Origin: a bacterium
GTDB lineage: Bacteria; Patescibacteriota; Minisyncoccia; Phycocordibacterales; Zambryskibacteraceae
Length of the DNA: 64,000 nucleotides
Direction of reading: 5' to 3'
Assembly (NCBI GenBank): GCA_030650605.1
Contig: JAUSDP010000020.1
Coordinates: forward strand, 13,486 to 77,485
Part shown: one piece after another, positions 10,287 through 44,775 of the stretch
How the letters are laid out: the number at the start of each line of letters is the position of its first letter
How positions within the stretch are numbered: position 1 is the first letter of the stretch
Notes under the pieces: model-generated
What the model saw: the letters and a program-made list of their open reading frames with translations, nothing else
What the model was told of the DNA's origin: nothing
The model's database searches: none
Position numbers and translations under genes: made by a program

Positions 10287-10538
10287 ACGGTTATGGTATT
10301 TTTTTTGGAAGAGGAAATTTTTTCATTTGGATTAAGTTTCTTAAAAACCTATTTGAAACTTTTCCAATTTAACGCTGGTGTCGACAGAGATTTAACTACA
10401 TCGACACTACTTGCCATGTTGCGTTTGCCAGATCTCACCAAAGTGAGGGGACCGCCAGCTGATAAATGGTTTTGTCTAGCGCGATCCACTGAACGTTGAA
10501 TTTTAGATTTTTGGGTGAGTGACATAAAAACTGTTCCG

Positions 10539-11102: not shown

Positions 11103-11282
11103 TAATAAGTACGAGAATGAACACTATCGCAAGCAAGGCAATTAGTTTCGCGATTTGCCAACGAGCAGCATCTTCACCAGCGTGTTTGCCACGGACGTAT
11201 GCTTTCTGTTCTGGCGTAATTGCGACGTGTTCCTCAAGGCTTCTAGTTAGGCGTTCAAAATCTGGCATAGTTTCTGGTCACG

Positions 11283-11913: not shown

Positions 11914-12894
11914 TTAATGCTTTGGACCGATGGCGCTTTCTTCTTCAGAATGTTCATGCGCAATGTGTGATCCATTATTTATCGTGGATTCATGTTTTTT
12001 TGAAGCGTCTGCCTTCTCTATTTCCATCAAGTTGGCGGAAAAGTCTGCTGTAATGGATTCAATACCGGCGATCGCCTTTCTAGCCAAACCGCTGACAAAT
12101 GATGTTGCCGTCATCTCGGTCGCTTTTGCAACATTGACGGTTTTGGCGACAAAAGCGTCACCCGCCTGAACAACGGTCGAGATTCGCGAACTTGCCGCAA
12201 CAACCGTGCGATCACGCATTTCCTTAGCTTCATGGATCGTAAATTGGATTATTTCGGCGCTAGCATCTGCAATGCTGATCGCTTTCGCTTTGGCAGTACT
12301 AATGACTTTCGCGGGAATGCCCTTGATCACAGCGGCCATTTTCCCCATGAAATTGGCGACTCGCCTCACTTCGTCAATAAATGCGGTGGTGACTTCCTGC
12401 CCGGTCTTGATTTTTTGGCTGGCCTGCGTTTTGGTGGCATCTATTTTCAATAGAACCGATTCAATAAATGGACTGTTTTTGATGTTTTCAGCAAATACTT
12501 CAAGCTTTTCTTTTGCATTTTCCATCGATTTCGAACTGCGATCAAACAGGGTTTCGGCTTGTTTTACGTTTCCATTGCGGAAAGATAATACGCCTTCAAG
12601 AGCGGCAATTCGGGAATCCAAAACATCCAATTTTGCGGCATTCACTTTGGTAAGAGCCTTTTCGGCCGCAAGTGAATCTTCTAACGCACGAATCCTGTTA
12701 CTTGCCAAACGAAGGGCTAAAGTTGATTCGTTCACGTTAAGCAAAGCGGCCTCTTCGAACTCCTCCATCTTGGCCTCGATTACGTCATAGCCTGCAGTTG
12801 CATTTAAAGGGCCATCATTGAGTTCCAAGTTGAAGTCTTCATTCCGCAGAATTGGTTCTTTTCGTACATCTTCATTTGCTATGTTCAGGCCCAT
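11914..12894 (-). CDS. coiled-coil protein
   Basis: 326 aa with long heptad-like A/L/E/K-rich stretches. Confidence 0.45.
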   Translation of the reverse strand: MGLNIANEDVRKEPILRNEDFNLELNDGPLNATAGYDVIEAKMEEFEEAALLNVNESTLALRLASNRIRALEDSLAAEKALTKVNAAKLDVLDSRIAALEGVLSFRNGNVKQAETLFDRSSKSMENAKEKLEVFAENIKNSPFIESVLLKIDATKTQASQKIKTGQEVTTAFIDEVRRVANFMGKMAAVIKGIPAKVISTAKAKAISIADASAEIIQFTIHEAKEMRDRTVVAASSRISTVVQAGDAFVAKTVNVAKATEMTATSFVSGLARKAIAGIESITADFSANLMEIEKADASKKHESTINNGSHIAHEHSEEESAIGPKH

Positions 12895-13180
12895 ATCATC
12901 ACTCCTTCATTATTGTGGGCAAGATGCCCAAAGAGAACATTCAAGTAAAATTACTTTACCGTAGATATAATAATATACTAAATATGAATCGTTTCAAAAT
13001 TCGCTTCATAAATCGTCACTTCCATAAAATAATGCAATGAGACTATGAAAAATTCATTTCTCATTGCCAAATTAAATAGCAATAGAAGTTTCTTGCTCGT
13101 GATGCGATAAACACTTAAAATTCTTCGTATGTTAGTGTATCTACGAATCAACAATTAACAAATTAAGAATACAACACTCG

Positions 13181-30380: not shown

Positions 30381-32711
30381 TTAATGTTGGCCAGAACGCG
30401 CCGAAAAAACTTCACTATCTTCTATCTCAGAAACTTCATTTAAGTCCAGATTATTTTGATTTTCAAATGCAATACTCGCTTTTACGCAAAACGTGTTCAT
30501 CAAGTTAACTATTAGGACTCGGTCTAATGCTTTTGGATAGCGATCGTCATCTGCTGATTCATCACGATTTGCACGAACCAGAAAATCATCGATCCAACCT
30601 CGCTCTTTCATTTTTTCATAAGTCCAGGTCTCGAAACTACGAGCAAACATCTCCACTGGTGTCGCCCAATAATCTCCACGCGCTGTATCCTTTTTAACAG
30701 ATGCGAGCAGAAAATTTGTATGAAAAACAGAAGATGAAAAATAATCACGCCAAAAGAATTCCGGTTTCGGACCACACATCTTTGCTTGAACCATTTGTTC
30801 AGATAAAGTGACGATGGATGAAGCTAATGCCACTGAAAACGCAGTGTCGCCACTATTCGAAAAATGTTTAGCTAGTTCAGGCAAACTACCTTCTGACAAC
30901 GCCAAATCTATCATTTCAGCCGCATTCTCCCAACTTTGAGAATGGGAGACGCCAGTTGCTATCAACGCGCAGGCTACTTTATCTTTTAGAATCGATACTT
31001 TGTGAACTAGCGAGTTCGCGCATTTCTTTTCTGCGTCCGAATCGTCAAACTTTCGAATATAAATACGACGCATTGCCTCATCTAAAGCGTGGCAGGCATC
31101 GCCAAATTCTCTTATTGATTGTGGTGCTCTCGCATTGTGCCCTGCGGCGACAAACTCTCGTGGCATTTCCATGCTGATGTTATATATTTTTTGACGGCCA
31201 CGTCGCTGATCTTTATTAATAAAAAACTGAGACGCCATGAAACGCCCGGACTGAGAAATTTGCATATTATTTGTGCGCATAGCCACAATGGCGTGCTTTG
31301 CCAACATATAATCCAATGCATGTCCCCATTCGTGCGCAAGTGAGCCTGCACCACTCATCCGGGTGAGATGAATTACTTCGCGACCGGGTTCAAAATGTGC
31401 GGCGGCACCTGAGCGCCCTCTGGCACCAAAACTTAACGCCAATGCACCATCAAAGCCAATTTTCTTCTTCCCTATATCCATAATGGACACTAAGGCCGAA
31501 AACGCATCGTAAGCGCGATTCATCACTTCTTGGCGCTCTTGTTGCGGCAACCAATTTCCAAATTCAATAGCGCGAAATCCAAAATCTCCCATCAATTGTT
31601 CTGCTGTTACATCGAGTTGACAACGCCAATCAACCCCAACTTTTCTGACGTTTTCAAGGTGCGCTATTTTTGTACCATCCGCATCAATGTCTTCACTACT
31701 TTCTGACTTTTTCTGACGGGGAGCAACAAATTTTTCGGGAAATAGAATTGCCCATTTTTTCTCTTCTAGTTCCGTCTCATCCTCGATCTGAAAAAGATCC
31801 CGATGGCGAATTTTCTGATGGATGGGTGCGTCCACTTCGTGGTACCAACTGGAGAGCAGGCAATTGAACTGCCGGCCAAAGAGTCTTGATATATCTCGCC
31901 AGTTCCCAGTTGTTTCGATCCAATCAATATTGCCTGTTTTGGTATTTGTTTCACAGATCAATAAGTCGCATTCGCTTAGCGCTAGAAGGTATCTATCGTG
32001 GACATCTTTCGTTGTCTTCGGAAGTGGTTCAGCAAAAATGGAATTCTTTAAAACCGTCAATGTTTCAATATAAAGAAGTGCGTCTTTCGCAAATTTTGCT
32101 TCGGTTTCGTACAGTTTTTTAATATTCGAGTTGATTTTCCGACGAAGAACCCGGATTGCAAAAAGTGCCTCAGCACCGACACCGAGTGCTTTTGCATCGT
32201 CAGCAGTAACGGAAGGCCAAATATTGTCACGCATCACAGAGTTCGTTTTTTCGACTTCGGTCATGCCTTCGAGATCGGAGTAAATCAATACTTTAGAGAA
32301 AAAGTCTTTCCTTGCGCCGCCAATTTTCTCACCAAAATCCTCAATACGTTCTGCGTTTTCTGTTGTTCTAGTTCGTGTCTTTTCCCGAGATTTAGATGCC
32401 TTCTTCGTTAAAGCGTCATTCTTCTTTACCATGGCAGCATAAGCTAGAGCATCAATAAAGATCTGAGTATTTGGAATTTCTTGAATTAAGGACCTTAAAT
32501 CAACATCAATATGCGGAAACCAGCTTTTACAGTCGGATAGCGTAAAAGATGTACCAGGCTTTTTACACGTAAAGCCATTCGCAAACACATCAAAATTTTC
32601 GTTGGTAGAGAGATCTGCCCCTCTCACAAATAAGCGCGTTGGAGCATCTCTCTGCGATCCAGGGATCACAGAGAGATGTATACCAAACGCAGACAGATCA
32701 GGCCATTTCAT
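30381..32711 (-). CDS. large multidomain polyvalent-type protein with an HExxH zincin-like metallopeptidase motif
   Basis: 776 aa; HEWGHALDYM (HExxH) preceded by a Gly-rich segment; this architecture recurs in plasmid and phage polyvalent proteins. Confidence 0.45.
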   Translation of the reverse strand: MKWPDLSAFGIHLSVIPGSQRDAPTRLFVRGADLSTNENFDVFANGFTCKKPGTSFTLSDCKSWFPHIDVDLRSLIQEIPNTQIFIDALAYAAMVKKNDALTKKASKSREKTRTRTTENAERIEDFGEKIGGARKDFFSKVLIYSDLEGMTEVEKTNSVMRDNIWPSVTADDAKALGVGAEALFAIRVLRRKINSNIKKLYETEAKFAKDALLYIETLTVLKNSIFAEPLPKTTKDVHDRYLLALSECDLLICETNTKTGNIDWIETTGNWRDISRLFGRQFNCLLSSWYHEVDAPIHQKIRHRDLFQIEDETELEEKKWAILFPEKFVAPRQKKSESSEDIDADGTKIAHLENVRKVGVDWRCQLDVTAEQLMGDFGFRAIEFGNWLPQQERQEVMNRAYDAFSALVSIMDIGKKKIGFDGALALSFGARGRSGAAAHFEPGREVIHLTRMSGAGSLAHEWGHALDYMLAKHAIVAMRTNNMQISQSGRFMASQFFINKDQRRGRQKIYNISMEMPREFVAAGHNARAPQSIREFGDACHALDEAMRRIYIRKFDDSDAEKKCANSLVHKVSILKDKVACALIATGVSHSQSWENAAEMIDLALSEGSLPELAKHFSNSGDTAFSVALASSIVTLSEQMVQAKMCGPKPEFFWRDYFSSSVFHTNFLLASVKKDTARGDYWATPVEMFARSFETWTYEKMKERGWIDDFLVRANRDESADDDRYPKALDRVLIVNLMNTFCVKASIAFENQNNLDLNEVSEIEDSEVFSARSGQH

Positions 32712-33055: not shown

Positions 33056-33709
33056 TTACGACTGAATATTTTTACATTTTGGATATGCGTTACAACCCAA
33101 AAAGGTTTTATTGTTCTTGCTACTTAAGCGGGTTTCCATCTTTCCTTCGCCGCATTTGGAACAGGTTTCGCCATGACCTGGCAATGAATCAAACTGAGGG
33201 CGTTCTTTTTTAGCGTACCCTCCTTTTTCGCGCTTACTTTGAATGTGAGTACCATCAATTTCAAGCATGAGGGCGCGATCCACTACTTGCTGAACATATT
33301 TTTCAATTCCACTCATAAACGCTACAGGAGTCGTTTTTCCTTCTGCCACATTTTGCAATCCAAATTCCAATAAGGCGGTTCGCCCTGGATCCCCTAGGCC
33401 CTCATCAATAAAAGAATCCAACTCGATTGCCAATGGTGAGGCATCCAAATATTTTCCATCGCGAAGAACCAAACCATCCGCAACGACTTTTTCAATCACG
33501 TCAGGTCTGGTTCTTTCCGTACCCAAACCTTTTGTCTTCATTAAAATTGATCGCATCCGATCATCAGTGACGAATTTATGGACGCCAACCATGTCATCCA
33601 ATAGCGTCGCATCGGTATATCTTGAAGGCGGAGCGGTCTTTCTTGCATCTACCCGACCACCACGAACCGATACCTGTTGGCCGGCCTGAAATGGAAGTTG
33701 AGTGGCCAC
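33056..33709 (-). CDS. C-terminal fragment of a type IA DNA topoisomerase (Topo III-like) with a Zn-ribbon; GTG start right after a TAG
   Basis: KTAPPSRYTDATLL ... TKGLGTERTRPDVIEKV matches the PPxRYTEAxL ... GIGTPATRAxII region; C-terminal CSKCG ... CNAYPKC zinc ribbon. Confidence 0.6.
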   Translation of the reverse strand: MATQLPFQAGQQVSVRGGRVDARKTAPPSRYTDATLLDDMVGVHKFVTDDRMRSILMKTKGLGTERTRPDVIEKVVADGLVLRDGKYLDASPLAIELDSFIDEGLGDPGRTALLEFGLQNVAEGKTTPVAFMSGIEKYVQQVVDRALMLEIDGTHIQSKREKGGYAKKERPQFDSLPGHGETCSKCGEGKMETRLSSKNNKTFLGCNAYPKCKNIQS

Positions 33710-33892: not shown

Positions 33893-34198
33893 TTAATGTG
33901 GATGGCTGTTTCTGGTTAGCTCGTCTCGTTGAACAAGTGCATTTTCAAATACTAAAACTTCGTTTTTCAATTTCTGAACAAAATGTTCTAGCCGGTTATC
34001 CTCGCTGAGCAAAAACAAAGAGAACCGTTCCAAACCTTTACGATCGGTTCTAATACCAATGTCTTCTTGATCTAATAGCTCCGATGCCTTCGATAAGAGA
34101 ATGCACTCATCTTCATCTGGCAAACGTTGCCGGAAATAGTTTTCCGCCGCCTGCTCAGAATGATAACGTTCCAAATCTTCGTATTGAATTTCATTCAT
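33893..34198 (-). CDS. hypothetical protein
   Basis: 101-aa ORF, 4-nt overlap with ardC. Confidence 0.4.
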   Translation of the reverse strand: MNEIQYEDLERYHSEQAAENYFRQRLPDEDECILLSKASELLDQEDIGIRTDRKGLERFSLFLLSEDNRLEHFVQKLKNEVLVFENALVQRDELTRNSHPH

Positions 34199-35172
34199 TT
34201 TGGGCTTATGGAAAACGTTTCTTCCTCATCCATTAGAGAAGAAATGCTGTCAAAATCAAAAGTAAAGTCGCTGAGATCAATTTCATTCATAGGAACGTAA
34301 TCGGGGTTATTTGTGAACTGCATCAAATAATCACTCGATTTTTCTGCCTCGGCCGCAGCTCTGAAGAAAACGTTTTTATCATTGTCGATCGCTTCCATCC
34401 AATCGCCGATATAACTTACGTGCTTATCGAGCTTATAAGAAACGCCAAAATCTGAGCATAAATAGACCGAAGTCAATTCTGCGACAAGTTCTTCTGCTGC
34501 ATAAGTTTTCATGTCACGATCCATGCGACCAGACGCCTTCGTCCAGTGAGCCATTTCATGTAGTAGGGTCGCGTAATATCCTTCCGTGTCATGAAATGAT
34601 TCTTTGGCTGGCATAGAAATCAAATCTTGACTCGGTATGTAACATGGGACATCTCTCATTCCAAACTCAAGGACGGCGCCAGATGCAGCGACCATCGCTT
34701 CAATTGCGTCATTTGAATGAATCTTAAGATCTGGAACGATAACCTCGGGCATGGAGGTCATTTGTTGAGCATTAAATACAGTGGCGTAAAAAGGACAAGG
34801 GCGATCGAGCTTCTTGTTTACGTAAACTGGCTTACCGGTTGCGGGATCGGTCTCATCAGTTTTGACACTTTTAGTGAACGACCAATATTCAATTGTTGTC
34901 CCCTTCTCTCCCTTTTTAACACTCACTTCAAGTTTTTTGGCTTGGTTGAAAGTCATCCAGCGAGAGTCGGTATAACCTCGCGCTAGAGCGACCATACCGA
35001 GCACAACTCGATTCCCTCCACGATAGCGCTTTCCGGTCGTCGGATTGAGTGGAGACATAACTGAAACAGCGCGTGCAGATGAAACGCTCCAATCCGGTTC
35101 CCAAGGCTTAAAGCCTAGGCTCAATTGATTAACAATTTCCTTGGAAAGGTTTTCGCGCAACTCTTTTGACAT
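34195..35172 (-). CDS. ardC: ArdC-family antirestriction / ssDNA-binding protein with a C-terminal zincin-like metallopeptidase
   Basis: N-terminal DUF1738-like region and C-terminal LLHEMAHWTKASGRMDRD (HExxH) as in ArdC; AGAGGA RBS. Confidence 0.8.
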   Translation of the reverse strand: MSKELRENLSKEIVNQLSLGFKPWEPDWSVSSARAVSVMSPLNPTTGKRYRGGNRVVLGMVALARGYTDSRWMTFNQAKKLEVSVKKGEKGTTIEYWSFTKSVKTDETDPATGKPVYVNKKLDRPCPFYATVFNAQQMTSMPEVIVPDLKIHSNDAIEAMVAASGAVLEFGMRDVPCYIPSQDLISMPAKESFHDTEGYYATLLHEMAHWTKASGRMDRDMKTYAAEELVAELTSVYLCSDFGVSYKLDKHVSYIGDWMEAIDNDKNVFFRAAAEAEKSSDYLMQFTNNPDYVPMNEIDLSDFTFDFDSISSLMDEEETFSISPK

Positions 35173-35383
35173 CACATCCTCTGTTTATTAATTTCGTATA
35201 TGTAATATTACACGGAAATTATAATAAAAGGAATTATGAAACGATACAAAATTAATTGGCGTACTAGCTACTCTACGAAATTCTATGGTGATTTTTTGTT
35301 TGGTTGCCGCTTCTCAAAAATTAATGCCTCACGGCCAATATAGCGAGATCGAGTTCCTACCTGCCGGCACCTTTAACTTCTTT

Positions 35384-35717
35384 TTCTCACCCCTGCACGC
35401 AGGGTATAACCATCCGAGCAACGTGTTGGTGGCACACGATCACTTCTCAACCCTGCACGCAGGGGGGATAACATGGCTGTCGGTGCTGGCGTCGTCATGT
35501 TTAATTTCTCACCCCTGCACGCAGGGGGGTAACAAACCGGTGTGGCACAACTCTTTACGTCTTCCATTCTCACCTCCGCACGCAGGGGGATAACAAGGTT
35601 AGTACAGTCGGTTGGTTTTCTGCCCTATTCTCACCCCTGCATGCAGGGGGATAACAGCATTGCAAATTGCCGGAGGATCGCCGGACCCGTTCTCACCCCT
35701 GCACGCAGGGGGATAAC
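35384..35717 (-). CRISPR. CRISPR array: 6 repeats of 27-29 nt (consensus GTTCTCACCCCTGCACGCAGGGGGATAAC on the plus strand) with 5 spacers of 32-33 nt; I-E-like hairpin repeat. Strand is uncertain: minus is inferred from the cas operon orientation and the degenerate distal repeat
   Basis: Repeats at 35384-35410 (degenerate, AGGGTATAAC), 35444-35472, 35505-35533, 35566-35594 (two substitutions), 35627-35655 (one substitution) and 35689-35717; spacers are unique. Confidence 0.85.
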
Positions 35718-35738
35718 TCTCATTATAACCTGATGATT

Positions 35739-36068
35739 TTAATCAATAATTTTGATGTCTTCACTTGTGCCAAGTTTTACATTACTATTTACGGTTAAAT
35801 ATTTTATTAGTTGTAGTCCGTGATTATCACAAACCTGTCTCGCATTTTGACCATGACTTGCAACAATAAAACCTGTTTCTGTTTTGGCAGCAAAAATGCA
35901 AATTGCCGAACATTCCGTATTTTTGATTTCATCCCAAATTTGCTTTGTTTTTCGTGAAGATAATTTCCAAACAAAAGTGCCTGGCCGAATCTCCAACATT
36001 ATCCGTTGCAGGTAACCAGTTAAACTTTTAGGGGCCTTTTTTATGTCCAAAACAACTAAACTAGTCAT
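35739..36068 (-). CDS. cas2: Cas2, I-E-like
   Basis: 109 aa; MTSLVVLD ... ETGF pattern aligns to I-E Cas2; 4-nt overlap with cas1. Confidence 0.85.
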   Translation of the reverse strand: MTSLVVLDIKKAPKSLTGYLQRIMLEIRPGTFVWKLSSRKTKQIWDEIKNTECSAICIFAAKTETGFIVASHGQNARQVCDNHGLQLIKYLTVNSNVKLGTSEDIKIID

Positions 36069-36889
36069 TTATCAGACCTCATTAAATGTTCGATAATATT
36101 AATAATTTTTGAAGCAGTGTTATCTCGCCTAAAGACATCTCTACACAACACTCGAATTCCAGATTCATTTACATTTATATTAGTTGAATATAATTCGATC
36201 GCAGCAGGAACAATTGTCTTAAATTTAATCGTGTCAGCAATATCAAATACAAATGATCGTGGATCGCCAGAATGAATGAACCCAATCGCCGGTGAATATC
36301 CAAGTGCAAGAATCGCAGCTTCGACCAATCCATAAAGCGCAGCGTTTGCTGTACTTATTGCGCGATTTAACGGATCTGACAACGAAGAACGTTGATCTCT
36401 TCCTAGCCATTTAACATTGTATCTTGCAGAAATTTCACGATACAAATCATAAACTTTTGCACCTTCGATCCCACGCAGTTGATCAATACTTCTTCCAGCT
36501 GGAGGTTCAACATCAAACATCTCCCGATAAATATTTCTCGCCATCTCCAAACGTCGCGATGGATCTAAATGAATGGAAGCTTGATGTAACAATTTTTGCG
36601 CTACAGCCCCACCTGGATTGCCAGCCGAATAACATCTAACTCCTGCCTCACCAATCCAAAGTATTAAACATCCCGATTCGGCACATGCCTTGACTGCGGC
36701 ATGTGTAACAACAGTCCCAGGTTCAATACAGATAACGCTTGTTGCACCGACAGGAAAATGTATTTTGCTATCGCCTTGTCGTAAAACGACCGCGTGCCCA
36801 TCAAGTTCAAGCACACCATATTCTGCATAAATAAAAGTTACCCGATCCACGATAGGGATCGGGTAATCTATCAACGAACGTCCACTCAA
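36065..36889 (-). CDS. cas1: Cas1 integrase, I-E-like
   Basis: 274 aa; long collinear similarity to E. coli Cas1 (GEAGVRCYSAG ... LRGIEGAKVY ... GFIHSGDPRSFVFDIAD). Confidence 0.9.
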   Translation of the reverse strand: MSGRSLIDYPIPIVDRVTFIYAEYGVLELDGHAVVLRQGDSKIHFPVGATSVICIEPGTVVTHAAVKACAESGCLILWIGEAGVRCYSAGNPGGAVAQKLLHQASIHLDPSRRLEMARNIYREMFDVEPPAGRSIDQLRGIEGAKVYDLYREISARYNVKWLGRDQRSSLSDPLNRAISTANAALYGLVEAAILALGYSPAIGFIHSGDPRSFVFDIADTIKFKTIVPAAIELYSTNINVNESGIRVLCRDVFRRDNTASKIINIIEHLMRSDK

Positions 36890-37602
36890 GCGATTAATTC
36901 CTTGGACATTACCCGATCAGTTTTTCTCCAATACGGCGGCCGGATACACGCCTGAACAGTGGCATAGGAAAATCCTGCTTTACCTGGCTCATCCAAAGGC
37001 AATACACGTAAGCGCCAATCATCTTCACGGTCATGTGATGACACATCAATGCTTGCTACACGACCGTAACCATTGCGTCCGACTTTGCCAATGTATTTAA
37101 TATGCTGAGTGAGATAATACTCAATGGCGTCAATGTCTCCAACGCCATACGCCGTAATATCACGGACCCAACGGCTTGCAGTCAACCATTGATAACCACG
37201 TTGTTGACCGCTAGCGGTTTTAATCCCAAACGTTTCAGGATCAATACCTCGCACGTTCCCATTTTTCAGAAAGCCTGAAACCCACACACCATCGGGCGTA
37301 TCTTCTGTATACAAATCCTTGAAGTACATCTCCGGATCAGATTTACGAATTTGATTCGACAGCATGATGTCACTCGATGCGGCCACAATCAATTTTGACG
37401 TTTTCCACACCCAGTCCTTGCCATCGGTGCGTGCAAGAAAATCTGACATATGCTGATCGGTCTTGGCCCAGCAATCATCCTCGCCAGCACGCTCCATTTC
37501 CTGCACGCTTGCATAGGCCAGAAGAGCATCCAGATGAATCGGATATTCCGAATCCATAAAAAGCGGCGAAGCAAGAGTGATCTTAACTTTAAAAGGCTGC
37601 AT
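36886..37602 (-). CDS. csf3: Cas5-group RAMP, Csf3-like
   Basis: N-terminal ASPLFMD ... HLD RAMP motif and C-terminal Gly-rich loop GKVGRNGYGRV; position matches csf3 in type IV-A; 4-nt overlap with cas1. Confidence 0.55.
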   Translation of the reverse strand: MQPFKVKITLASPLFMDSEYPIHLDALLAYASVQEMERAGEDDCWAKTDQHMSDFLARTDGKDWVWKTSKLIVAASSDIMLSNQIRKSDPEMYFKDLYTEDTPDGVWVSGFLKNGNVRGIDPETFGIKTASGQQRGYQWLTASRWVRDITAYGVGDIDAIEYYLTQHIKYIGKVGRNGYGRVASIDVSSHDREDDWRLRVLPLDEPGKAGFSYATVQACIRPPYWRKTDRVMSKELIA

Positions 37603-37631
37603 AAAAATGCTCCTGATTGAGGTGTTGATTT

Positions 37632-38846
37632 CTATCGAGCTAATTTTTTAGCAGCAGCTTTGGCTTCTTTTTCAAGTGCCTTTGCCGCCTTTTCTTCAGC
37701 TGCTTTCAGCGCTTTTTCTTCGGCTTTGCGCTCCTTATCAACCGCTTTGGCCGCTTTTTCTTCGTCAGTGGCAATCACTGGTGGCTTCATGATGGCGTCC
37801 AGACGCTCTCCACTCAATTCAGACGCAGCAATTTTCCACGCATTCAAATAGACAGCAATTGATGGATCAGCTTTGATCAACGAGTTATTGTTAAAAATCG
37901 TATCGGTCACATCAACATTGTCACCAGTATTAATCGCGATCGCCACATCATTGAGGCGAATACGGCCAAGTCCATTACGAGTTTGTCCACCGATGGACGT
38001 TTTTGCCAGTCCATCAAGACTTAACAAAAATAGACCAATTTGTGCATCGGTAACATCGGTCAATTCAACAGTAAAATCAAAATCAACGCCTGGATCTACA
38101 AATTCAAATGCACTCCACGCTTTAGTGCTGTTGCGACTTCCTTTTTCTTCTGCGTCCTTCGCTAGCTGATCCTCAATGATCAACCGCTGACGTGCATTAA
38201 ATTGAACTTCAAAGTCCGTTACAACACCTTCCATCCGATCTACATCAAGAAGTGCACTAACGTCATCGCCGCGTCGAAATGCCGCCCCGCGCGAAATATT
38301 CATGCCCGATGTTGCTTTCCCTACTCCCCGTGGGTGACCTACAGAAAAGCCAGATGATCGCAGACTATCCATGACGGGCACTGCATCAAGAACACGCATA
38401 CGACGACGCAACATACGCGGACCACCACCAAAAAGTCCAACATAAGGATGTGACGATACCTCCTTATATTCAGCAAACGTCAGATCGCGAGAATCGGGCT
38501 TTCCTGTCACAGCGCCGCAAGTAATTGCAGAGTACGTTTGCAAAGTGATCTTTTGATTCTTCTCACGAAGAACATTGACAAGAATTTGAGCACCCTGACG
38601 ACGCAAACGACCTGCAATATTATTCGCGGCAATGACAGCGACACCATAATCGAGTCCATCGACAGATCCAGGGGCAAAACGACGACGCTGAATACCGGCA
38701 CAGGCGATGCCTCCTTTGGTTCCGTTTTTAACAAGGCCATAGCCGGTTGAATCGCTTACTTCGTAGCGGAAGGTTTCTGGTGATGCGATGTGCAATGGAG
38801 ACAAAGTAGTCAAGATTGCGTGGATGGTGACTGATTTTTTGGACAT
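37632..38846 (-). CDS. csf2: Cas7-group RAMP, Csf2-like backbone protein, with an unusual Lys/Ala/Glu-rich C-terminal tail
   Basis: N-terminal TTLSPLHIASPE (Cas7 signature); about 350-aa RAMP body; C-terminal EEKAAKAVDKERKAEEKALKAAEEKAAKALEKEAKAAAKKLAR. Confidence 0.55.
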   Translation of the reverse strand: MSKKSVTIHAILTTLSPLHIASPETFRYEVSDSTGYGLVKNGTKGGIACAGIQRRRFAPGSVDGLDYGVAVIAANNIAGRLRRQGAQILVNVLREKNQKITLQTYSAITCGAVTGKPDSRDLTFAEYKEVSSHPYVGLFGGGPRMLRRRMRVLDAVPVMDSLRSSGFSVGHPRGVGKATSGMNISRGAAFRRGDDVSALLDVDRMEGVVTDFEVQFNARQRLIIEDQLAKDAEEKGSRNSTKAWSAFEFVDPGVDFDFTVELTDVTDAQIGLFLLSLDGLAKTSIGGQTRNGLGRIRLNDVAIAINTGDNVDVTDTIFNNNSLIKADPSIAVYLNAWKIAASELSGERLDAIMKPPVIATDEEKAAKAVDKERKAEEKALKAAEEKAAKALEKEAKAAAKKLAR

Positions 38847-38902
38847 GATATTAAGCTTTCTAGTTGAGTTAAATGAACAGCTAATAAATTACAAATACGG
38901 GA

Positions 38903-39670
38903 TTAATCACTGGTTTCTGCAGGTGTGAAATCATCGATACCGGCACCTGGGGTCAATAAGAATCGTAGTCCCCATGTTTCGCCTAGCGTCAAATTTCTCA
39001 AAAATTCAATTTCATTCTTAAATTGTTTCAATAGATCAGCATGTATTTCCGCTTTCGCTGGATCTGAAGGCATGTTGAGACGAAGCGTTCCATGTCCGAT
39101 TTCTTTCAAATCGGCAGACAAACGAAGAAATGGATGGACCAATGTTTTCGCCGTTGCTTCAAATCCAAACGCTTTACCAACCTGCTGACTGACCTCGACG
39201 GCCTGCATCAAAATGGCATGTCTGATTTTTACATCCCGCAGTCCAACCCGTACATAAAACAATTCGGGAGAGAAATTCACGGGCGCTCGCCATGCCATAT
39301 GTTGATTATTTGCCGTGGCATACACCGCCACAAAGGGTTCTTGCGGTGGATTAGTCAATGCGGAAGAAATTTCGAGCCACTTGCGAAATGGAATATAGGC
39401 AGACTTGGTAAATACGCCATATCCTGTTTCTTTCAATGCAGTTGCACTCATCAAAGTGGCGCAATATCCACACATCAAATCACTACCACGTGCAGCGAGA
39501 GACAAGTCATCCATGAAAGCTGCAGATACTGAGAACGGGCTAGACAGATCACCAACGGCAATATGCAATCCGCAAAAAGCACAGCAACCTTCTTTTTTGG
39601 AAGCAACCCCTTCAGGCGATTCACCTCGGGACTGCGTCACAATCACAGAGGAAGTTATAGTTAAGCTCAT
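38903..39670 (-). CDS. csf1: Csf1-like zinc-finger small subunit (Cas8-like)
   Basis: CCAFCG ... CGYC zinc finger; ATG overlaps the cas6 stop (ATGA) with GGAGGA RBS; position matches csf1. Confidence 0.5.
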   Translation of the reverse strand: MSLTITSSVIVTQSRGESPEGVASKKEGCCAFCGLHIAVGDLSSPFSVSAAFMDDLSLAARGSDLMCGYCATLMSATALKETGYGVFTKSAYIPFRKWLEISSALTNPPQEPFVAVYATANNQHMAWRAPVNFSPELFYVRVGLRDVKIRHAILMQAVEVSQQVGKAFGFEATAKTLVHPFLRLSADLKEIGHGTLRLNMPSDPAKAEIHADLLKQFKNEIEFLRNLTLGETWGLRFLLTPGAGIDDFTPAETSD

Positions 39671-40416
39671 CGTTCTATCCTCCGACGAATCAATCCATAT
39701 CCACGCGAACGCAGTTTTCCTGCCATCCAAGGACCATTTAGTGAAATGTTGGTACAAAAGGTAATATTCTTAAAAGCCGCTGCAGGAATCCCGGGCTTAA
39801 TCGGAATTGGTACTGACTCTCCTTCTAAAATATCCAAAATAAGACTGTCGTCAGATGGGATACCATGCTCTAGAAGATGTGGCGTACCAAGGTCTTCATC
39901 GAGCCACCGAGCCATAGAGATCAGACCGTTTAAAATTTCTTTTTTAATTTCAGGCGCTCGCTCTTGAGCCGTCACACCAAAAAAGTGAGAAAGCTTCGCC
40001 GGTTTTTTTGACACGATCAATTTACGGATGGAGTAAAGGATCGGTTCGCTCATTTGAAGCTCACAATCACCGTGTTTAAATTCCATACGGTATGGCCCAC
40101 CGAGATGTTTGGACAGTGCTGTCACGATCGACGCAGTATGTTCTGCCAATAAGTCCGTGCCAGATTTGCCAATACCATAGATGCGAATAAATCCGTTTCC
40201 ACCATCAAAAATAATGCTTGGAGGTAGACCGAAACCTTCTCCCTTGCGATCATCTCCATAACGACCCTGGAGTGTTTTACCATCTGGGCCGCGAGCGAAA
40301 ATAGCAGGATCAATTGATCGACCATCACAAGCCTTGGCCACTAACGATCGGGCATCTTCAGGATAGATCTGCTGCCCTTTTAGTACTTCAGGAAATAACA
40401 AAAGTTCTTTATACAT
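39667..40416 (-). CDS. cas6: Cas6 endoribonuclease (Cas6e/Csf5-like)
   Basis: C-terminal Gly-rich loop AGKLRSRGYGLI resembles Cas6e GxxKSMGCGLL; first gene of the operon. Confidence 0.6.
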   Translation of the reverse strand: MYKELLLFPEVLKGQQIYPEDARSLVAKACDGRSIDPAIFARGPDGKTLQGRYGDDRKGEGFGLPPSIIFDGGNGFIRIYGIGKSGTDLLAEHTASIVTALSKHLGGPYRMEFKHGDCELQMSEPILYSIRKLIVSKKPAKLSHFFGVTAQERAPEIKKEILNGLISMARWLDEDLGTPHLLEHGIPSDDSLILDILEGESVPIPIKPGIPAAAFKNITFCTNISLNGPWMAGKLRSRGYGLIRRRIER

Positions 40417-40574
40417 GTTGTGTGTCCAATTATTTGTTTAGTTGGTGTAACGAATATTACTCTACAAAAAAAATATAGCAAGTAGGAATTTAATTTTAAT
40501 AAGTAAATACACTTGATGAAATTTTCTTTATTTGGGCTATAATTTGCCCATATTAACCAATGCCGAGGATTCTC
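40417..40574. promoter_or_regulatory. divergent promoter region between the cas operon (minus) and dinG (plus)
   Basis: AT-rich 158 bp; TATAAT at about 40538 on the plus strand; TTGCTA-16-TAATAT on the minus strand. Confidence 0.35.
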
Positions 40575-42872
40575 ATGAACGCAGCCGCACAGCGAAATGT
40601 ACAAGTGCCTTTGGTAGATCCCGTCAAAAACCACGTCGGGGCCTCGATCTCAGATGCTTATCGCAGTCTTATTCGTTTTGCCATTAATGCAAAACTACCT
40701 CCGAAAGCAGTAGAACTTGAAGGTATTCCTCGTGTAAGCGTGTTTTTCCCGCCTGCGTTATTCGCTCAAATCTCAGAAATCGCTGAACTTCATCAACTGT
40801 CATATCAATCTACAGTAGCTGGGCTGGCGATAGCCGGTGCAGAAAAAATAGCCGAAAAAAATGAATTGGTAGAACAATTCAAAAGTGATGTTCCATTTAG
40901 GGCGCGTCCGGAACAAGTTCTTTTCTACCAATCAATTATGGCCGGGCTGTCATCATCTAAAATCGTCGTTGCAGAAGCCTCTACTGGCGCAGGCAAGGGA
41001 CGTGCATTGATGGCTGCCGCTATCGCATCAGCTCAAAACGGAAAACTCCCTGTCATCGTCGCAGCACCAACAATCGTCGTCGTTAATCAACTATGGGCTG
41101 AACTGCAGGTACTTCGCACGCAAGACAATATGGGACCGCTTATTTCAGCAACGATCCTACCTGGCTCTGCAGATCTGGCAGATGACGTCAAACTTTTGGA
41201 GTGGGCAAACGATCCTGATTTTAATCAACTCGATCCTGCGGTGACAGAATGGATCCTTAAGGGTGGACCTCACAAAGCTAACGATGCGATGGCGCAAGTA
41301 GCCAAAGAACAAGGAATTACCCTTTGCTGGATGATGTCCGACTTGCAAGAGATTGCAACTAACTTCCCTTCTGATGACTATGTTTTAACGACGAATAGCG
41401 AAGACAAGACAACGCTCTCGCAATCGCGAGAATTGTTAGCCAAAATTCGTGAAGCCGCCAATCGGAAAGACGTCGATAAAAATATGAACACGGTTCACGC
41501 CGGTGCGGACATTATCCTTTGCACCCACGCCATGTTAGCGCTTGGACAAATGACAAAATGGGTTGTGCTCCCGCAACCAAAAGTGCTGATCGTCGACGAA
41601 GCCCATCTTCTAGAAGAAACAATTTCAAGAATGAATAGTCAGCAAATTTCACTATTTTCGATTAGTTATCGCCTAAGCCGTTTTTGCCGCGCAACAGGGG
41701 CAGGAAAAGGAACCGTAGCCAGGGACACTCAAGCAAAGGCCAAACAGTTCCTGCGTACTTGTATGGAAATGTCAAACAATGATATTCGTCAAAAACTCAA
41801 TGACGATCCGTCTAAATATGACACTGTTCAAAAGGGATTGGCCAGTCTCGCCAATATGGTTAAAAACAAGGTTTTTAAGTCGGATCCAACCATTCAAAAA
41901 GATATGTATTCTCTTTTGTCTGGCACAGCCAATATGATGGAGAAGGATCGGTCCAAAAACAGTACGCATCTTCAATTCTCTCCTGATAGGCGGTACCCAT
42001 TGATCAGTGTCGGAGCCGATACGATCGGAATGCAGGCTGGAGCCATTTGGAAGACCGTAGACGGTGGTGCCGTACTTGCGTCGGCTACCATGTACATCAC
42101 CGATGAATATGGCAACCAGAAGTGCGATTACGTGGTTCGAAATCTTTCAATCCCGCTCTCCAGGCTGGACACCCCTCTTCCTGTCGTGAGCAGCTATATT
42201 TACACCCTTCCAACACTATACTTACCAAAAAAAGAAAACTATGCGGCACTGTCTCGCCCAGCATTGAAAGAGAGGGAGGACCCTCAAGTGGAGAAAGAAT
42301 GGTTGAAAAATATTGCTGATGTTGTCGCCAAAAATGCTAAAACATGCAAAGGCGGAACGCTGGTACTCACAAATTCCTATGACCAGATTGACGAGATCTC
42401 CACGCAACTGAAAGAAAAATACCCTGAGATCGCGGCCAGAGTCATTGTCCAGGTACGCAAGGCAAAATTTTCAGCCGCAGTGAACGCATTCACTCTGGCG
42501 CATAGCAATGGCGTAAAGCCGATTTTGATTGGGCTTGGCCCGGCCTGGACAGGGCTCAATTTGTCGCAAGATGTATCCGATCCTAAAAAAGATACTCTGC
42601 TGATGGACCTTGTCATCGCCTGTAGCCCGATCGGACTGAACCAAACTGCGACAATGCTTCGCCGTATTGAGCAAACCAATACAAGTGCGATAGCGAAAGA
42701 AGGACTACTTATTTTAAAACAAGGGCTTGGGCGGTTGATTCGTCGCGATGGTGTTGAAGGACGTCGAATTTGGATCTTGGATGGCAGAATCTGGTCAGAT
42801 AATTGGCTGAAGCAATTTACGGGGCCGGCTAAACGTTTGTTGGGTAAATATAAAAATGTGGATTATTTTTAG
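40575..42872 (+). CDS. csf4: DinG-family (Rad3/XPD-like) SF2 helicase, CasDinG/Csf4-like
   Basis: Walker A AEASTGAGKGRA; DEAH box VDEAHLLEE; about 766 aa; GAGGA RBS; divergent from the cas operon. Confidence 0.8.
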   Translation: MNAAAQRNVQVPLVDPVKNHVGASISDAYRSLIRFAINAKLPPKAVELEGIPRVSVFFPPALFAQISEIAELHQLSYQSTVAGLAIAGAEKIAEKNELVEQFKSDVPFRARPEQVLFYQSIMAGLSSSKIVVAEASTGAGKGRALMAAAIASAQNGKLPVIVAAPTIVVVNQLWAELQVLRTQDNMGPLISATILPGSADLADDVKLLEWANDPDFNQLDPAVTEWILKGGPHKANDAMAQVAKEQGITLCWMMSDLQEIATNFPSDDYVLTTNSEDKTTLSQSRELLAKIREAANRKDVDKNMNTVHAGADIILCTHAMLALGQMTKWVVLPQPKVLIVDEAHLLEETISRMNSQQISLFSISYRLSRFCRATGAGKGTVARDTQAKAKQFLRTCMEMSNNDIRQKLNDDPSKYDTVQKGLASLANMVKNKVFKSDPTIQKDMYSLLSGTANMMEKDRSKNSTHLQFSPDRRYPLISVGADTIGMQAGAIWKTVDGGAVLASATMYITDEYGNQKCDYVVRNLSIPLSRLDTPLPVVSSYIYTLPTLYLPKKENYAALSRPALKEREDPQVEKEWLKNIADVVAKNAKTCKGGTLVLTNSYDQIDEISTQLKEKYPEIAARVIVQVRKAKFSAAVNAFTLAHSNGVKPILIGLGPAWTGLNLSQDVSDPKKDTLLMDLVIACSPIGLNQTATMLRRIEQTNTSAIAKEGLLILKQGLGRLIRRDGVEGRRIWILDGRIWSDNWLKQFTGPAKRLLGKYKNVDYF

Positions 42873-43130: not shown

Positions 43131-43463
43131 ATGAATCAGAAAGCTTCCATGAAAAACTCCTTCATACCCTCATTCCAGTGTGAATCTGCCCTTGAAGACA
43201 TGGGTAGTAAGTTGCGCATTGCGCGACTTCGCCGTAACGAGTCGGTGCAAATCGCCGCGCAACGTCTTGGCATCTCTCGCGCCAAGTATCAACGGCTTGA
43301 AAATGGCGACTCGAACGTATCCGCTGGCGCATTGATTGAAGCGCTCATCCTGTACGGCTTTGAATCGCAGGTATTTGCCCTGGCGGACCCAGATTTAGAT
43401 GAAACTGGAAAAAGGTTAGAAAAACAATTGCTCCCAAAACGAGGACGTACTCATGCAAAGTAA
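43131..43463 (+). CDS. hipB: HipB-like XRE HTH antitoxin (start uncertain)
   Basis: LRIARLRRNESVQIAAQRLGISRAKYQRLENG is an XRE HTH; overlaps the downstream hipA by 11 nt. Confidence 0.7.
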   Translation: MNQKASMKNSFIPSFQCESALEDMGSKLRIARLRRNESVQIAAQRLGISRAKYQRLENGDSNVSAGALIEALILYGFESQVFALADPDLDETGKRLEKQLLPKRGRTHAK

Positions 43464-44775
43464 ATCGAAATTAATAGAAACACCACTCTATGTTTACAAG
43501 ACGGGCGAGGATCTCCCTATATTAATTGGAGAACTTGGCTTTATTTCCGACACGCAGAATGAGTTCCTTGCACAATTTAATTACGATGCGTCGTACATAA
43601 TTCGACCTGATGCATTCGCAATCGATCCGTTGAATATGCCGTTGGCTGCACCAACCAAAGAATACAGCACCACAAATAGGTATCACGTTCTTGGAGCATT
43701 GTTTGACGCAGCTCCAGATGCTTGGGGCCGTAAGGTAATCAGTGCGAAAGTTGGCGTTTCCCAGGCATCAGAAAAAACCATTCTGTTAAAGGGAAACGGA
43801 ATGGGTGTCGGTGAGCTTTTCTTTTCAGCATCCCTGCTTGAAAGTAACCCCACTTTTCTTAAAATTCCAACTATTGACCAAATTGAGCAACTGGCCAGCC
43901 CGATCACGCAAGTAGATGAAGGGGCTAAATTTAATCCAGCTTGGGAAAATCTATTGATCAGTTCCTGGGACATTGGCGGGGCCAGGCCGAAGGCAATTGT
44001 TTTGGACGAATCGGGCGAGCACTGGATTGCAAAATTTCCTCGCAAGGGTGAAACATATGATCGCCAACGCGTCGAATGGGCGAACCTTGAAATGGCGGCC
44101 GACATTGGCATGGATGTACCGGAACGCAGGCTTATCGAGACGCAATATGGCGCCGTATTGCTGGTCAAACGATTTGATCGCAGCTTGGACAAGAAAAGCC
44201 ACTATCTGAGCGCAGCATCAGTCATCAGTCCGTCGCCGACAATTGATAAACGTCAAATCGATGCTCCAATCGGACAGGCAACGTTTTCCTATGCACGTAT
44301 CGCCGACACGATACAACGAATCTCAAATTATCCTAGTCGGGATCTGCAGGAACTTTATGCAAGAATGGTTTTCAATGTTCTTACCCACAATACGGACGAC
44401 CATCTAAAAAATACAGGCTTTCTAAGAGTAAAAGATGCACGGGATCCATATGCATATCGACTGTCGCCATTGTTCGATGTGGTGACCCAGGAGGGATCTC
44501 TAAAGCACATGCTACAGATCGGGAAAGCTGGGCGCGAGAGCACTATAGAAAATGCACTCTCCAACGTGCGTCGCATGAGAATAAAAGAGGACGCGGCGCA
44601 AAAAATCGTGCAAATAGCGCGATCTGTGTTTGATCGCCGAGCAGAATATTACGACAGAGCCGGATTGCAATCAGATGAAGTTGAGGCATTGGAAAGGTGT
44701 TTCACATGGCTGAGATCTGCTCGGGTTGCGGATGTTGAAATTGAAGACGAAGAGAGTGGATCGGCACCGCGATAG
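43453..44775 (+). CDS. hipA: HipA-family serine/threonine kinase toxin
   Basis: DIGGARPKAIV and VLTHNTDDHLKNTGF motifs (HipA P-loop-like and catalytic motifs). Confidence 0.85.
   Translation: MQSKSKLIETPLYVYKTGEDLPILIGELGFISDTQNEFLAQFNYDASYIIRPDAFAIDPLNMPLAAPTKEYSTTNRYHVLGALFDAAPDAWGRKVISAKVGVSQASEKTILLKGNGMGVGELFFSASLLESNPTFLKIPTIDQIEQLASPITQVDEGAKFNPAWENLLISSWDIGGARPKAIVLDESGEHWIAKFPRKGETYDRQRVEWANLEMAADIGMDVPERRLIETQYGAVLLVKRFDRSLDKKSHYLSAASVISPSPTIDKRQIDAPIGQATFSYARIADTIQRISNYPSRDLQELYARMVFNVLTHNTDDHLKNTGFLRVKDARDPYAYRLSPLFDVVTQEGSLKHMLQIGKAGRESTIENALSNVRRMRIKEDAAQKIVQIARSVFDRRAEYYDRAGLQSDEVEALERCFTWLRSARVADVEIEDEESGSAPR

Follow-up and report, generated by a model that had tools for sequence, protein, structure and literature searches.

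A CRISPR array that begins almost immediately behind the cas2 gene of its own operon raises two connected questions, namely where its leader lies and which of its strands is made into crRNA. In the window, as the whole stretch of 64,000 nucleotides analysed here is called, the cas2-proximal repeat of such an array ends at 35717, 21 nt from the cas2 stop codon at 35739-35741 (TTA on the plus strand, TAA as the gene is read). The original prediction gave these coordinates correctly, and held in addition that no room for a leader is left on the cas side, that the strand of the array is ambiguous, and that crRNA arises either by read-through from cas2 or by convergent transcription from an AT-rich region on the ardC side. 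The follow-up leads to a different picture. The array is very likely part of an IV-A1-like locus that is borne by a plasmid or ICE and has its own I-E-derived cas1-cas2; it runs on the minus strand co-directionally with the cas genes, and has a leader of about 60 bp at 35718-35777.

The array (minus strand, 35384-35717), delineated by a repeat-family search, consists of six direct repeats and five spacers with a period of 60-62 nt. Counted from cas2 outwards, R1 (35690-35717) has the canonical sequence GTTATCCCCCTGCGTGCAGGGGTGAGAA and is followed by R2 (35628-35655), R3 (35567-35594), R4 (35506-35533), R5 (35444-35472) and the cas2-distal R6 (35384-35410); the intervening spacers of 33-34 nt occupy 35656-35689, 35595-35627, 35534-35566, 35473-35505 and 35411-35443. 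Parsed as a 28-nt repeat and a 33-nt spacer, the unit equals the ruler of I-E Cas1-Cas2, and the locus shows the features of I-E arrays, that is, a palindromic repeat of 28/29 nt, spacers of 32/33 nt, and an adjacent, co-directional cas1e-cas2e pair. No two of the six repeats are identical. The terminal repeat is degenerate, reading GGGTATAAC in place of GGGGGATAAC, and hairpin stability drops away from cas2 (-11.8, -11.8, -4.6, -10.6, -7.3 and -8.0 kcal/mol from R1 to R6), the hairpin being lost in R3 (z about 0) and weakened in R5 and R6. Because all six repeats differ and the R3 hairpin is lost, part of the array may be non-functional. A scan of 35100-36100 against Rfam returned no CRISPR-DR family, its sole match being a chance miRNA.

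The genes next to the array combine a type I-E adaptation module with type IV-A effector genes. The cas2e gene (35739-36068, minus strand) encodes 109 aa that match Pfam PF09707 and TIGR01873 over residues 5-87, the latter above its cut-off at 3e-13, and cas1e (36065-36889, minus strand) encodes a full-length Cas1 of 274 aa that matches TIGR03638 at 5e-84, also above cut-off. Its residues E142, H206 and D219, which we take to be the counterparts of the catalytic E141, H208 and D221 of E. coli Cas1, are invariant in the clade alignment. The effector block (36886-40416, minus strand) comprises csf3/cas5 (36886-37602), csf2/cas7 (37632-38846), csf1/cas8 (38903-39757) and csf5/cas6 (39667-40416), whose csf effector genes match the NCBIfam models TIGR03114, TIGR03115 and TIGR03116 above their cut-offs; csf5, with 91.6 bits, falls short of its cut-off of 150 and is backed by the PADLOC model Cas6_2_IVA1. 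Divergent from this operon lies the gene of the csf4/CasDinG helicase (40560-42872, plus strand), which matches TIGR03117 at 9e-138, above cut-off, and PADLOC Csf4_1_IVA1 at 2.8e-147.

The locus therefore has the type IV-A gene set of csf1, csf2, csf3, a Cas6-like csf5, a CasDinG helicase and a CRISPR array, and departs from the usual, descriptive and non-strict type IV-A feature of lacking an adaptation module in that its operon ends in cas1e-cas2e. The label type IV-A3, given to it originally, has to be exchanged for IV-A1-like. The best subtype-specific PADLOC models are Csf4_1_IVA1, Cas6_2_IVA1 and Csf1_1_IVA1, and the order is that of IV-A1 loci, with a divergent dinG followed by csf5-csf1-csf2-csf3-array and with a Csf5-type Cas6 and Csf1 both present. 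Subtype IV-A3, a Klebsiella/Enterobacteriaceae clade with a Cas6e-like nuclease, was rejected on these models and on a tblastn search of Csf2 against 72,556 plasmids (E <= 1e-5), in which none of the 15 records retrieved is from Klebsiella. Since Csf2 is only 25-29% identical to that of known IV-A1 plasmids, the window locus represents a distant IV-A1 branch. For Csf1, Csf2 and Csf3 the highest scores are those of AFERR-type models (named after Acidithiobacillus ferrooxidans), and Csf4 is matched by a model of this type as well. A megablast search of 35100-36900 against plasmids gave no match, and the window, a fragment of a mobile element, is represented in metagenome contigs only.

All Cas1 relatives examined (55-98% identity), with the exception of contig L180, lie in type IV-A loci, namely L001, L162, L163, L164/165, L168, L170, L171, L174, L177, L181 and L182. 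In each of these but L182, where the genes are ordered differently, cas1-cas2 forms the end of the csf operon, and in every relative that reaches beyond cas2 an array follows 21-72 nt past cas2 in the same direction; nine related type IV-A loci have such a co-directional array behind cas1e-cas2e. Scans of genomes and metagenomes with the Cas1 alignment recovered a single close locus, L002; nearly all other loci were ordinary I-E loci with 45-50% identity, which were reused as an I-E background set. Degenerate terminal repeats stand at the cas2-distal end in L163, L164, L174, L002 and the window; the degenerate repeat at 35384 had thus been recognized properly as a trailer-type repeat, and it pointed in the right direction. 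Strong repeat heterogeneity within the array is common to the window, L163 and L170.

The repeat itself says little about its strand, and the original prediction was right that it is nearly symmetric. Identity to oriented reference repeats (14-22 on the minus strand versus 13-22 on the plus strand) and hairpin folding (-11.8 kcal/mol on either strand) were both discarded as strand tests. A third candidate was the base that follows plus-strand GATAAC, an A in four of the five spacer-adjacent repeats of the window; it was rejected as a PAM-derived base because relatives show no conservation there and have their first-base bias at the other end. Acquisition in I-E systems is polarised to the leader end, and the spacer unit starts with the G of the AAG PAM. 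Read in the direction of cas, the first spacer base is G in 31/42 cases in L170, A in 9/12 in L164 and A or G in 16/21 in L163, with a weaker bias to C at the opposite spacer end in L170 (17/42) and L002 (9/17); the five spacers of the window have no first-nucleotide bias. The PAM side could not be used for orientation, because searches with 97 spacers yielded no protospacer. Local BLAST against the window and every other locus returned self-hits only, concatenated spacers gave one weak and uninformative match in PLSDB (30/33 in a Variovorax megaplasmid, with no adjacent AAG), and five exact 24-mers from the window spacers, together with the repeat core, had no match in viral contigs.

The flanks of the array are far less symmetric than its repeats. 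When all 127,880 60-mers of the window were scored with a matrix derived from 103 independent leaders of I-E type, the minus-strand segment 35718-35777 (-1 to -60 from repeat 1) ranked first with +21.6 bits, 5 sd above the null mean (-39.8, sd 12.1), as against -55.8 for the opposite, ardC-side flank, which is lower than 91% of random window positions. The segment can be aligned both with leaders from related loci and with that of E. coli K-12 CRISPR-1, and contains three elements at conserved places. At the junction of leader and repeat lies GAGA/G (35718-35721, minus strand; the last slash of each such motif marks the junction), a form of the (A/T)AGA/G common to the window, L163, L164, L171 and E. 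coli (TTTAGA/G); it corresponds to positions -1 to -4 of the E. coli leader, which are a Cas1-Cas2 contact (PMC10011333). Directly after the cas2 stop comes a predicted IHF-like site, AATCATCAGGTTA (35726-35738, minus strand, -21 to -9), with one mismatch to WATCAANNNNTTR. Perfect consensus sites occur at the identical -21 in L163, L164 and L177, and near-matches as good as that of the window occur at about 8.5e-4 of positions (109 found versus 102 expected). The third element, TTGGCAC (35767-35773, minus strand, -56 to -50), is a putative upstream Cas1-Cas2 motif resembling the IAS, and falls within Leu-Gly-Thr codons of cas2. The pattern T(T/C)GG(C/T) is found at -54 to -57 in seven leaders (the window, L163, L177, L170, L171, L181 and, as TTGGTGG, E. 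coli), and the consensus of the 103 I-E leaders has TTGGTAG at -56 to -50; the E. coli IAS has been placed at -50 to -53 (PMC5224486), and an upstream leader element at -50 to -55 (PMC10011333). The sequence next to repeat 1 therefore carries both a predicted IHF site and a predicted upstream motif. Leader design is not uniform across the clade, since L168, L170 and L182 score poorly on the I-E matrix.

What looked like a missing leader is thus a complete I-E-type leader that overlaps the end of cas2, whose last 12 codons and stop overprint the distal 36-40 nt or so. The core of Cas2 ends in GLQLI (35805-35819) and is followed by a tail of 21 aa (35742-35804) that runs into the leader. Among relatives the tail varies from 7 to 21 aa and the stop codon drifts, and yet the array keeps its distance: five loci whose Cas2 ranges from 95 to 109 aa all have exactly 351 nt between the start of cas2 and repeat 1, and from the core motif to repeat 1 there are 102 nt in four distinct loci, regardless of tail length. 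In the window, the stop is placed 10-14 codons later than in most relatives, so that the reading frame covers the distal leader and no more than 21 nt stay non-coding. Two other lineages, L163 and L164, have the same overlap. In this lineage, then, the leader follows the Cas2 core at a fixed distance.

Because a leader lies on the cas2 side, the arrays of relatives are co-directional with cas, and degenerate repeats are cas2-distal, the array is assigned to the minus strand, and by homology with these loci transcription would proceed in the same direction. A consensus scan yielded a sigma-70-like promoter candidate, TTGGCA-16-AATTAT (35746-35773, minus strand), with a predicted start about 20 nt before repeat 1, and a second candidate, GTGATA-18-TAAAAT (35801-35830, minus strand). 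Such candidates are weak evidence on their own, as five sites were found versus 3.1 expected from shuffles, with weak matches (9/12). A TATAAT at -10 to -5 was rejected as a promoter, having no usable -35 and being part of the GTTAnAAT..AG(A/T) of the I-E leader consensus. No terminator was found between cas2 and the array, and minus-strand promoter-like sites are present inside the cas2 3' end. Minus-strand pre-crRNA may accordingly stem from transcription that continues out of the cas operon, from a promoter within the 3' end of cas2, or from both, and Csf5 would cut past the hairpin, leaving UGAGAA(N) as the 5' handle. New spacers of 33 bp would be inserted at the cas2-proximal repeat by Cas1-Cas2, probably assisted by an IHF-like bending protein, so that the most decayed repeat, on the ardC side, would be the oldest. 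Of the two sources of crRNA proposed at the outset, co-directional expression from the cas2 side fits all the evidence, and convergent transcription is contradicted by it.

That second source has some points in its favour. If 35180-35383 were the true leader, plus-strand transcription would converge on cas2 and produce crRNA with a GAUAAC handle; the plus-strand repeat does end in GATAAC, akin to the ATAAAC of I-E repeats, folds as stably as its complement, and is mostly followed by the A noted above. The description of this flank as AT-rich is correct for 35150-35300 (27-28% GC) and fails for 35300-35383, adjacent to the array (49-53% GC); the cas2 3' end is itself AT-rich, at 32-36% GC over 35700-35950. 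Beyond the array's far end lies ardC (34195-35175, minus strand), and 35176-35383, with no strand assigned, is simply the array trailer and ardC upstream region. Apart from its poor score on the leader matrix, this flank offers a best IHF match with three mismatches, no TYGGY motif near -56 and, in the consensus scan of 35180-35383, no plus-strand promoter-like site that faces the array; nor was a terminator-like hairpin found in 35176-35383. Convergent transcription would moreover set the most degenerate repeat beside the leader, the reverse of all relatives, and related and reference IV-A1 loci all have co-directional arrays, which makes this reading most improbable. It is scarcely credible, too, that both strands are transcribed, the minus-strand crRNA guiding Csf and a plus-strand antisense RNA from the ardC side regulating the level of crRNA or cas2. 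The equal hairpin stability would accommodate this, and plus-strand promoter-like sites do exist at 35776-35805, but they are directed away from the array, none faces it from the ardC side, and relatives suggest no conserved element there.

Given a minus-strand array with a cas2-side leader, it may still be asked whether the leader is in use. An inherited leader now out of use for adaptation, a cas2 extension that is a neutral or damaging accident, and crRNA made by passive read-through only would together describe a decaying remnant. The small size of the array, the divergence of its repeats, the damaged hairpins of R3, R5 and R6, the mismatch in an IHF-like site that is perfect in relatives, and spacers without a first-nucleotide bias all agree with decay. 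Against this, leader and first repeat are identical in L001 and L162, two near-identical loci that come from other samples, the three residues invariant in the clade stand in a full-length Cas1, the upstream motif has been retained despite its coding role, and L163 and L164 keep the overlap together with a perfect IHF site. Repeat heterogeneity, furthermore, is reportedly a property of type IV arrays (Moya-Beltran et al. 2021). A remnant is thus unlikely, and the minus-strand system is presumably active at present. Whether the overlap contributes anything is a separate matter; that transcription or translation of cas2 competes or couples with leader bending, integration and pre-crRNA initiation is a somewhat speculative proposal and rather doubtful.

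Comparison with known systems places most of these features. The I-E CRISPR-1 locus of E. coli K-12 has, like the window, a 28-nt palindromic repeat with a 33-nt spacer, a hairpin in the same register, and an array downstream of and co-directional with cas1-cas2, and both leaders combine TTGG(T/C) close to -56 with an IHF region rich in A/T (about -9 to -35) and with AGA/G at the junction (PMC5224486, PMC10011333). The two differ in the effector (Cascade and Cas3 in E. coli, type IV-A Csf and DinG in the window), in the distance from cas2 stop to repeat 1 (105 versus 21 nt), and in the 60-bp core leader, none of which is coding in E. coli, whereas the upstream motif lies within cas2 codons in the window. 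From Cas2 core to repeat 1 the window has 102 nt, as compared to a median of 138 nt in 113 I-E loci. Overprinting itself has a parallel in the I-E locus L092 (metagenome contig Ga0180009_10026324), where a cas2 tail extends 36 aa past the core motif, the stop is 20 nt before repeat 1, and TCGGT lies inside the reading frame; unlike the window, L092 has a canonical I-E repeat, a Cas2 70% identical to that of E. coli, and no type IV link.

Plasmid IV-A3 arrays of Klebsiella pneumoniae use the host's Cas1-Cas2e in trans, with a conserved 65-bp I-E-like leader that lies between cas genes and array and bears Cas1-Cas2e and IHF motifs (Pinilla-Redondo 2020, PMC7038947; Newire 2020, PMC7434947; Benz 2023 preprint). 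They share with the window a type IV-A effector, an I-E-like repeat and leader, and 33-bp spacers, but lack the cas1-cas2 that they borrow from the host and that the window has as the last genes of its operon. The IV-A1 loci on plasmid 1 of Aromatoleum aromaticum EbN1 and on P. aeruginosa plasmids have the window's gene order, a co-directional array about 113 and 44 nt after csf3, respectively, and repeats of the form GT..TCCCC...GGGG.T.GA.. shared with the window; unlike the window, they lack cas1-cas2. Type IV loci that recaptured adaptation modules were reportedly described by Moya-Beltran et al. in the CRISPR J in 2021; such loci would resemble the window in being type IV-A systems on mobile elements with their own cas1-cas2 and heterogeneous repeats.

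The seemingly missing leader and ambiguous strand are therefore mostly ordinary, and the array can be counted as a compact example of a familiar kind. That a first repeat lies close behind cas2 is no sign that a leader is missing, for leader elements may underlie the variable C-terminal tail of Cas2; searches for leaders in intergenic sequence only, or orientation from the repeat only, would fail at this locus, whereas scoring the flanks with an I-E leader matrix can orient arrays. The locus is one of a sizeable group of related IV-A1-like systems, most of them metagenomic, and this clade has in cis the I-E-type integrase and leader logic for which the IV-A3 plasmids of Klebsiella turn to their hosts in trans. 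Should the overlap of cas2 and leader prove functional, the locus would be an adaptive type IV-A module that is fully autonomous, regulates itself and resides on a mobile element. The clade is consistent with reports that I-E adaptation and type IV-A interference are compatible, and its members are natural candidates for studying autonomous type IV adaptation.

The CRISPR array consists of six direct repeats at 35384-35717 with a spacing of 60-62 nt, and it follows a series of minus-strand genes: csf5 (39667-40416), csf1 (38903-39757), csf2 (37632-38846), csf3 (36886-37602), cas1e (36065-36889; TIGR03638, 5e-84) and cas2e (35739-36068; Pfam PF09707, TIGR01873). The csf4 gene, encoding the CasDinG helicase (40560-42872), diverges on the plus strand, and ardC (34195-35175, minus) lies beyond the array. 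The measurements in the original prediction are right, namely the 21-nt gap between the cas2 stop codon (35739-35741) and the nearest repeat end (35717), the degenerate far repeat (35384-35410) and the AT-rich stretch at 35150-35300 (27-28% GC), and they were taken to mean that no leader exists on the cas side. Overlooked were the AT-rich composition of the cas2 3' end (32-36% GC) and the 49-53% GC of the 80 nt bordering the far repeat. That the repeat alone leaves the strand ambiguous is confirmed: the minus reading is only slightly closer in identity to eight oriented reference repeats, hairpin energy is equal on both strands, and Rfam holds no family matching the repeat region. Judged from the sequence of the whole locus, the array belongs to the minus strand and has its leader at the cas2 side; compact and of I-E type, this leader is partly concealed beneath an extended cas2 reading frame.

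The absence of a leader is contradicted by a position matrix built from 103 non-redundant leaders of ordinary I-E loci (-60 to -1, counted upstream from the cas2-proximal repeat 1 on the cas-gene strand), none of them from the type IV clade. Minus-strand 35718-35777 scores +21.6 bits, higher than any other of the 127,880 60-mers that the window offers on its two strands (null mean -39.8, sd 12.1). When the 110 nt preceding repeat 1 are aligned for eight loci, one of them the K-12 CRISPR-1 leader of E. coli, three elements prove to be shared: near -56 the motif T(T/C)GG(C/T), between -21 and -9 an IHF-type site, and at the repeat an (A/T)AGA|G junction. These agree in position with the mapped elements of the E. 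coli leader, where the IHF site spans -9 to -35, the Cas1-Cas2 contact -1 to -4 and the upstream element -50 to -55 (PMC10011333), and where the integrase anchoring site occupies -50 to -53 (PMC5224486). The IHF site is perfect (WATCAANNNNTTR) in the related loci L163, L164 and L177, and has one mismatch in the window (AATCATCAGGTTA); because one-mismatch matches to the consensus are frequent in the window (109, with 102 expected), the evidence lies in where the site falls and in how the whole leader scores rather than in the IHF motif alone. The window site begins immediately 3' of the cas2 stop codon, and the upstream motif, TTGGCA, supplies the codons for Leu-Gly-Thr in the Cas2 tail, whereas the same motif is non-coding in L171, in the close relative L002, in L181 and in E. 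coli.

How cas2 came to cover part of the leader is seen in related loci. A plasmid search with the window found no close match, and the exact window Cas2 and a 98% identical Cas1 each occur on a metagenome contig (L001 and L162, respectively) that ends at the first repeat. Cas1 homologues are numerous, and the eleven inspected for locus context (55-98% identity) lie in type IV-A loci (L163, L164/165, L168, L170, L171, L172, L174-176, L177-179, L181 and L182), with contig L180 as the exception. Apart from L182, whose gene order differs, these type IV-A loci all have cas1-cas2 as the final genes of the csf operon. Where the contig of a related type IV-A locus reaches past cas2, an array of 28-nt repeats and 33-nt spacers begins 21-72 nt after the stop codon, co-directional with the cas genes. 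The minus-strand reading of the window repeat (GTTATCCCCCTGCGTGCAGGGGTGAGAA) is in register with the cas-direction repeats of L163 (GGTTGCCCCATGCGTGCATGGGTAAGAA) and L002 (GTATTCCCCGCACATGTGGGGATTAAAG) and with the I-E repeat of E. coli.

Strict spacing accompanies this arrangement. In the window, L163, L164, L174 and L182, the cas2 start codon and repeat 1 are exactly 351 nt apart, while Cas2 length varies from 95 to 109 aa and the gap from 21 to 63 nt. Measured from the conserved C-terminal motif G(L/V)xL(I/V) that marks the end of the Cas2 core, repeat 1 lies 102 nt away in the window, L163, L164/165 and L174/175, and 101 nt away in L170, with a Cas2 tail past the motif of 7 to 21 aa across type IV-linked loci. 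Thus the cas2 stop codon drifts within a segment of fixed length. The core-to-repeat distance of 102 nt in this clade stands against 138 nt as the median of 113 I-E loci. If the tail has its normal 7 aa, just a ~60-bp core leader remains, as L174 shows with a gap of 63 nt; IV-A3 is reported to have a conserved leader of comparable size, 65 bp (PMC7434947). Both the shorter core-to-repeat distance and the longer window tail (21 aa versus 7-11) therefore contribute to the 21-nt gap, the second shortest among 128 loci with detectable cas2 and array (median 93 nt). In the ordinary I-E locus L092 (2560-2760), cas2 likewise enters the leader, with a 36-aa tail ending 20 nt before repeat 1, so the overlap is a sporadic feature and no new design specific to the type IV clade.

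Array polarity points the same way. Degenerate terminal repeats lie at the cas2-distal end in L163, L164, L174 and L002, and in the window hairpin stability from cas2 outward runs -11.8, -11.8, -4.6, -10.6, -7.3 and -8.0 kcal/mol, with repeat quality also declining. Read along the cas direction, spacer units of 33 nt begin with G in 31/42 cases in L170, with A in 9/12 in L164, and with A or G in 16/21 in L163, and show a weaker bias at the last base (C in 17/42 in L170 and 9/17 in L002). The first-base bias is characteristic of I-E systems, where acquisition carries the final PAM base in along with the spacer (PMC10011333; Benz preprint); the five window spacers are too few for it to appear. 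Co-directional arrays also follow csf3 in the IV-A1 systems of Aromatoleum aromaticum EbN1 (~113 nt; gene order as in the window) and a P. aeruginosa plasmid (~44 nt).

The original prediction allowed for convergent transcription from the AT-rich ardC side. This is very unlikely: on the plus strand, the 60 nt flanking the far repeat (35324-35383) score -55.8, below 91% of random positions, and within the far flank the best IHF match has three mismatches, the upstream motif is missing at the right distance, and no promoter-like site faces the array. On the cas2 side no terminator-like structure was detected before the array, so that read-through from the cas operon would be the simplest source of pre-crRNA. 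A consensus scan found two minus-strand sigma-70-like sites within the cas2 3' end, GTGATA-18-TAAAAT (35830-35801) and TTGGCA-16-AATTAT (35773-35746); such sites are no more numerous than in shuffled sequence and hence are weak evidence for promoters. In E. coli, a weak leader promoter starts the CRISPR-1 transcript ~50 nt before repeat 1 (PMC10011333), and by analogy the equivalent site would fall inside the window cas2. Nor was a terminator detected between array and ardC, making read-through into ardC possible; the csf operon, cas1-cas2, array and ardC share the minus strand (34195-40416), and this anti-restriction gene could be co-transcribed with the CRISPR locus.

Several other features of these loci deserve mention. 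Beyond ardC lie a topoisomerase III-like ORF (33056-33709, minus; 217 aa) matched only over the C-terminal third (profile ~456-648 plus zinc ribbon), which looks truncated or split, and a 776-aa protein (30381-32711, minus) with a CLCA_X-like region and a C-terminal LPD1 large polyvalent-protein domain; this protein's nearness to ardC and to the topoisomerase fragment is consistent with a conjugative element's leading region. A pair of genes for an HTH protein and a HipA-like kinase (43131-44775, plus; hipBA-type toxin-antitoxin) adjoins the CasDinG gene and occupies the same place in L001 (1294-2938), L163 (1235-2851) and L168 (1816-3395), suggesting conserved linkage. In the arrays of L163 (11167-12474) and L170 (11138-13731), blocks of two or three repeat subtypes alternate (for example GGTTG..GGGTAAGAA and GGTCG..GGATAGGAA), and one L170 spacer is present twice (S10 = S36), which suggests block duplication or inter-array recombination, not simple leader-end growth. 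L170 spacers 15 (12021-12053) and 30 (12937-12969) share a same-strand overlap of 17-19 nt and thus come from one target region, ~16 nt apart, reminiscent of repeated or primed acquisition. The identical Cas1 (P0033) occurs in the full type IV-A locus L181 and on contig L180, where cas1-cas2-array (10001-11240) follow ~10 kb of small genes that lack annotation and include no csf gene; the latter may represent an adaptation module with array that stands alone on a different mobile element. L182 (4587-11078) has the type IV-A order csf3, unknown gene, Cas6e-like protein (PF08798), csf2 and dinG, and also ends in cas1e-cas2e and an array, linking the I-E adaptation module to more than one IV-A architecture.

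The assignment to IV-A3 is unsupported. A plasmid search with Csf2 gave no Klebsiella match; its counterparts on IV-A1 plasmids (Aromatoleum, Pseudomonas, Thioalkalivibrio) share 25-29% identity with it. Among subtype-specific models, Csf4_1_IVA1, Cas6_2_IVA1 and Csf1_1_IVA1 fit best, and AFERR-type models are the top matches for Csf1, Csf2 and Csf3. Moya-Beltran et al. (2021) reportedly described adaptation modules as independently recaptured and type IV arrays as having unusually heterogeneous repeats, a description that fits the heterogeneity within the arrays of the window, L163 and L170. Type IV loci have been said almost always to lack adaptation genes (PMC7038947; PMC8175902; Benz preprint), or in a later review only "in many cases" (PMC11656645). 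The puzzle of a leaderless array of ambiguous strand resolves as ordinary. The array is short and decayed, its present activity putative; pre-crRNA would come from the minus strand, and IHF-dependent leader use would be predicted. The context holds moderate interest, being a clade of IV-A1-like systems that possess their own integrase and leader, both of I-E type.
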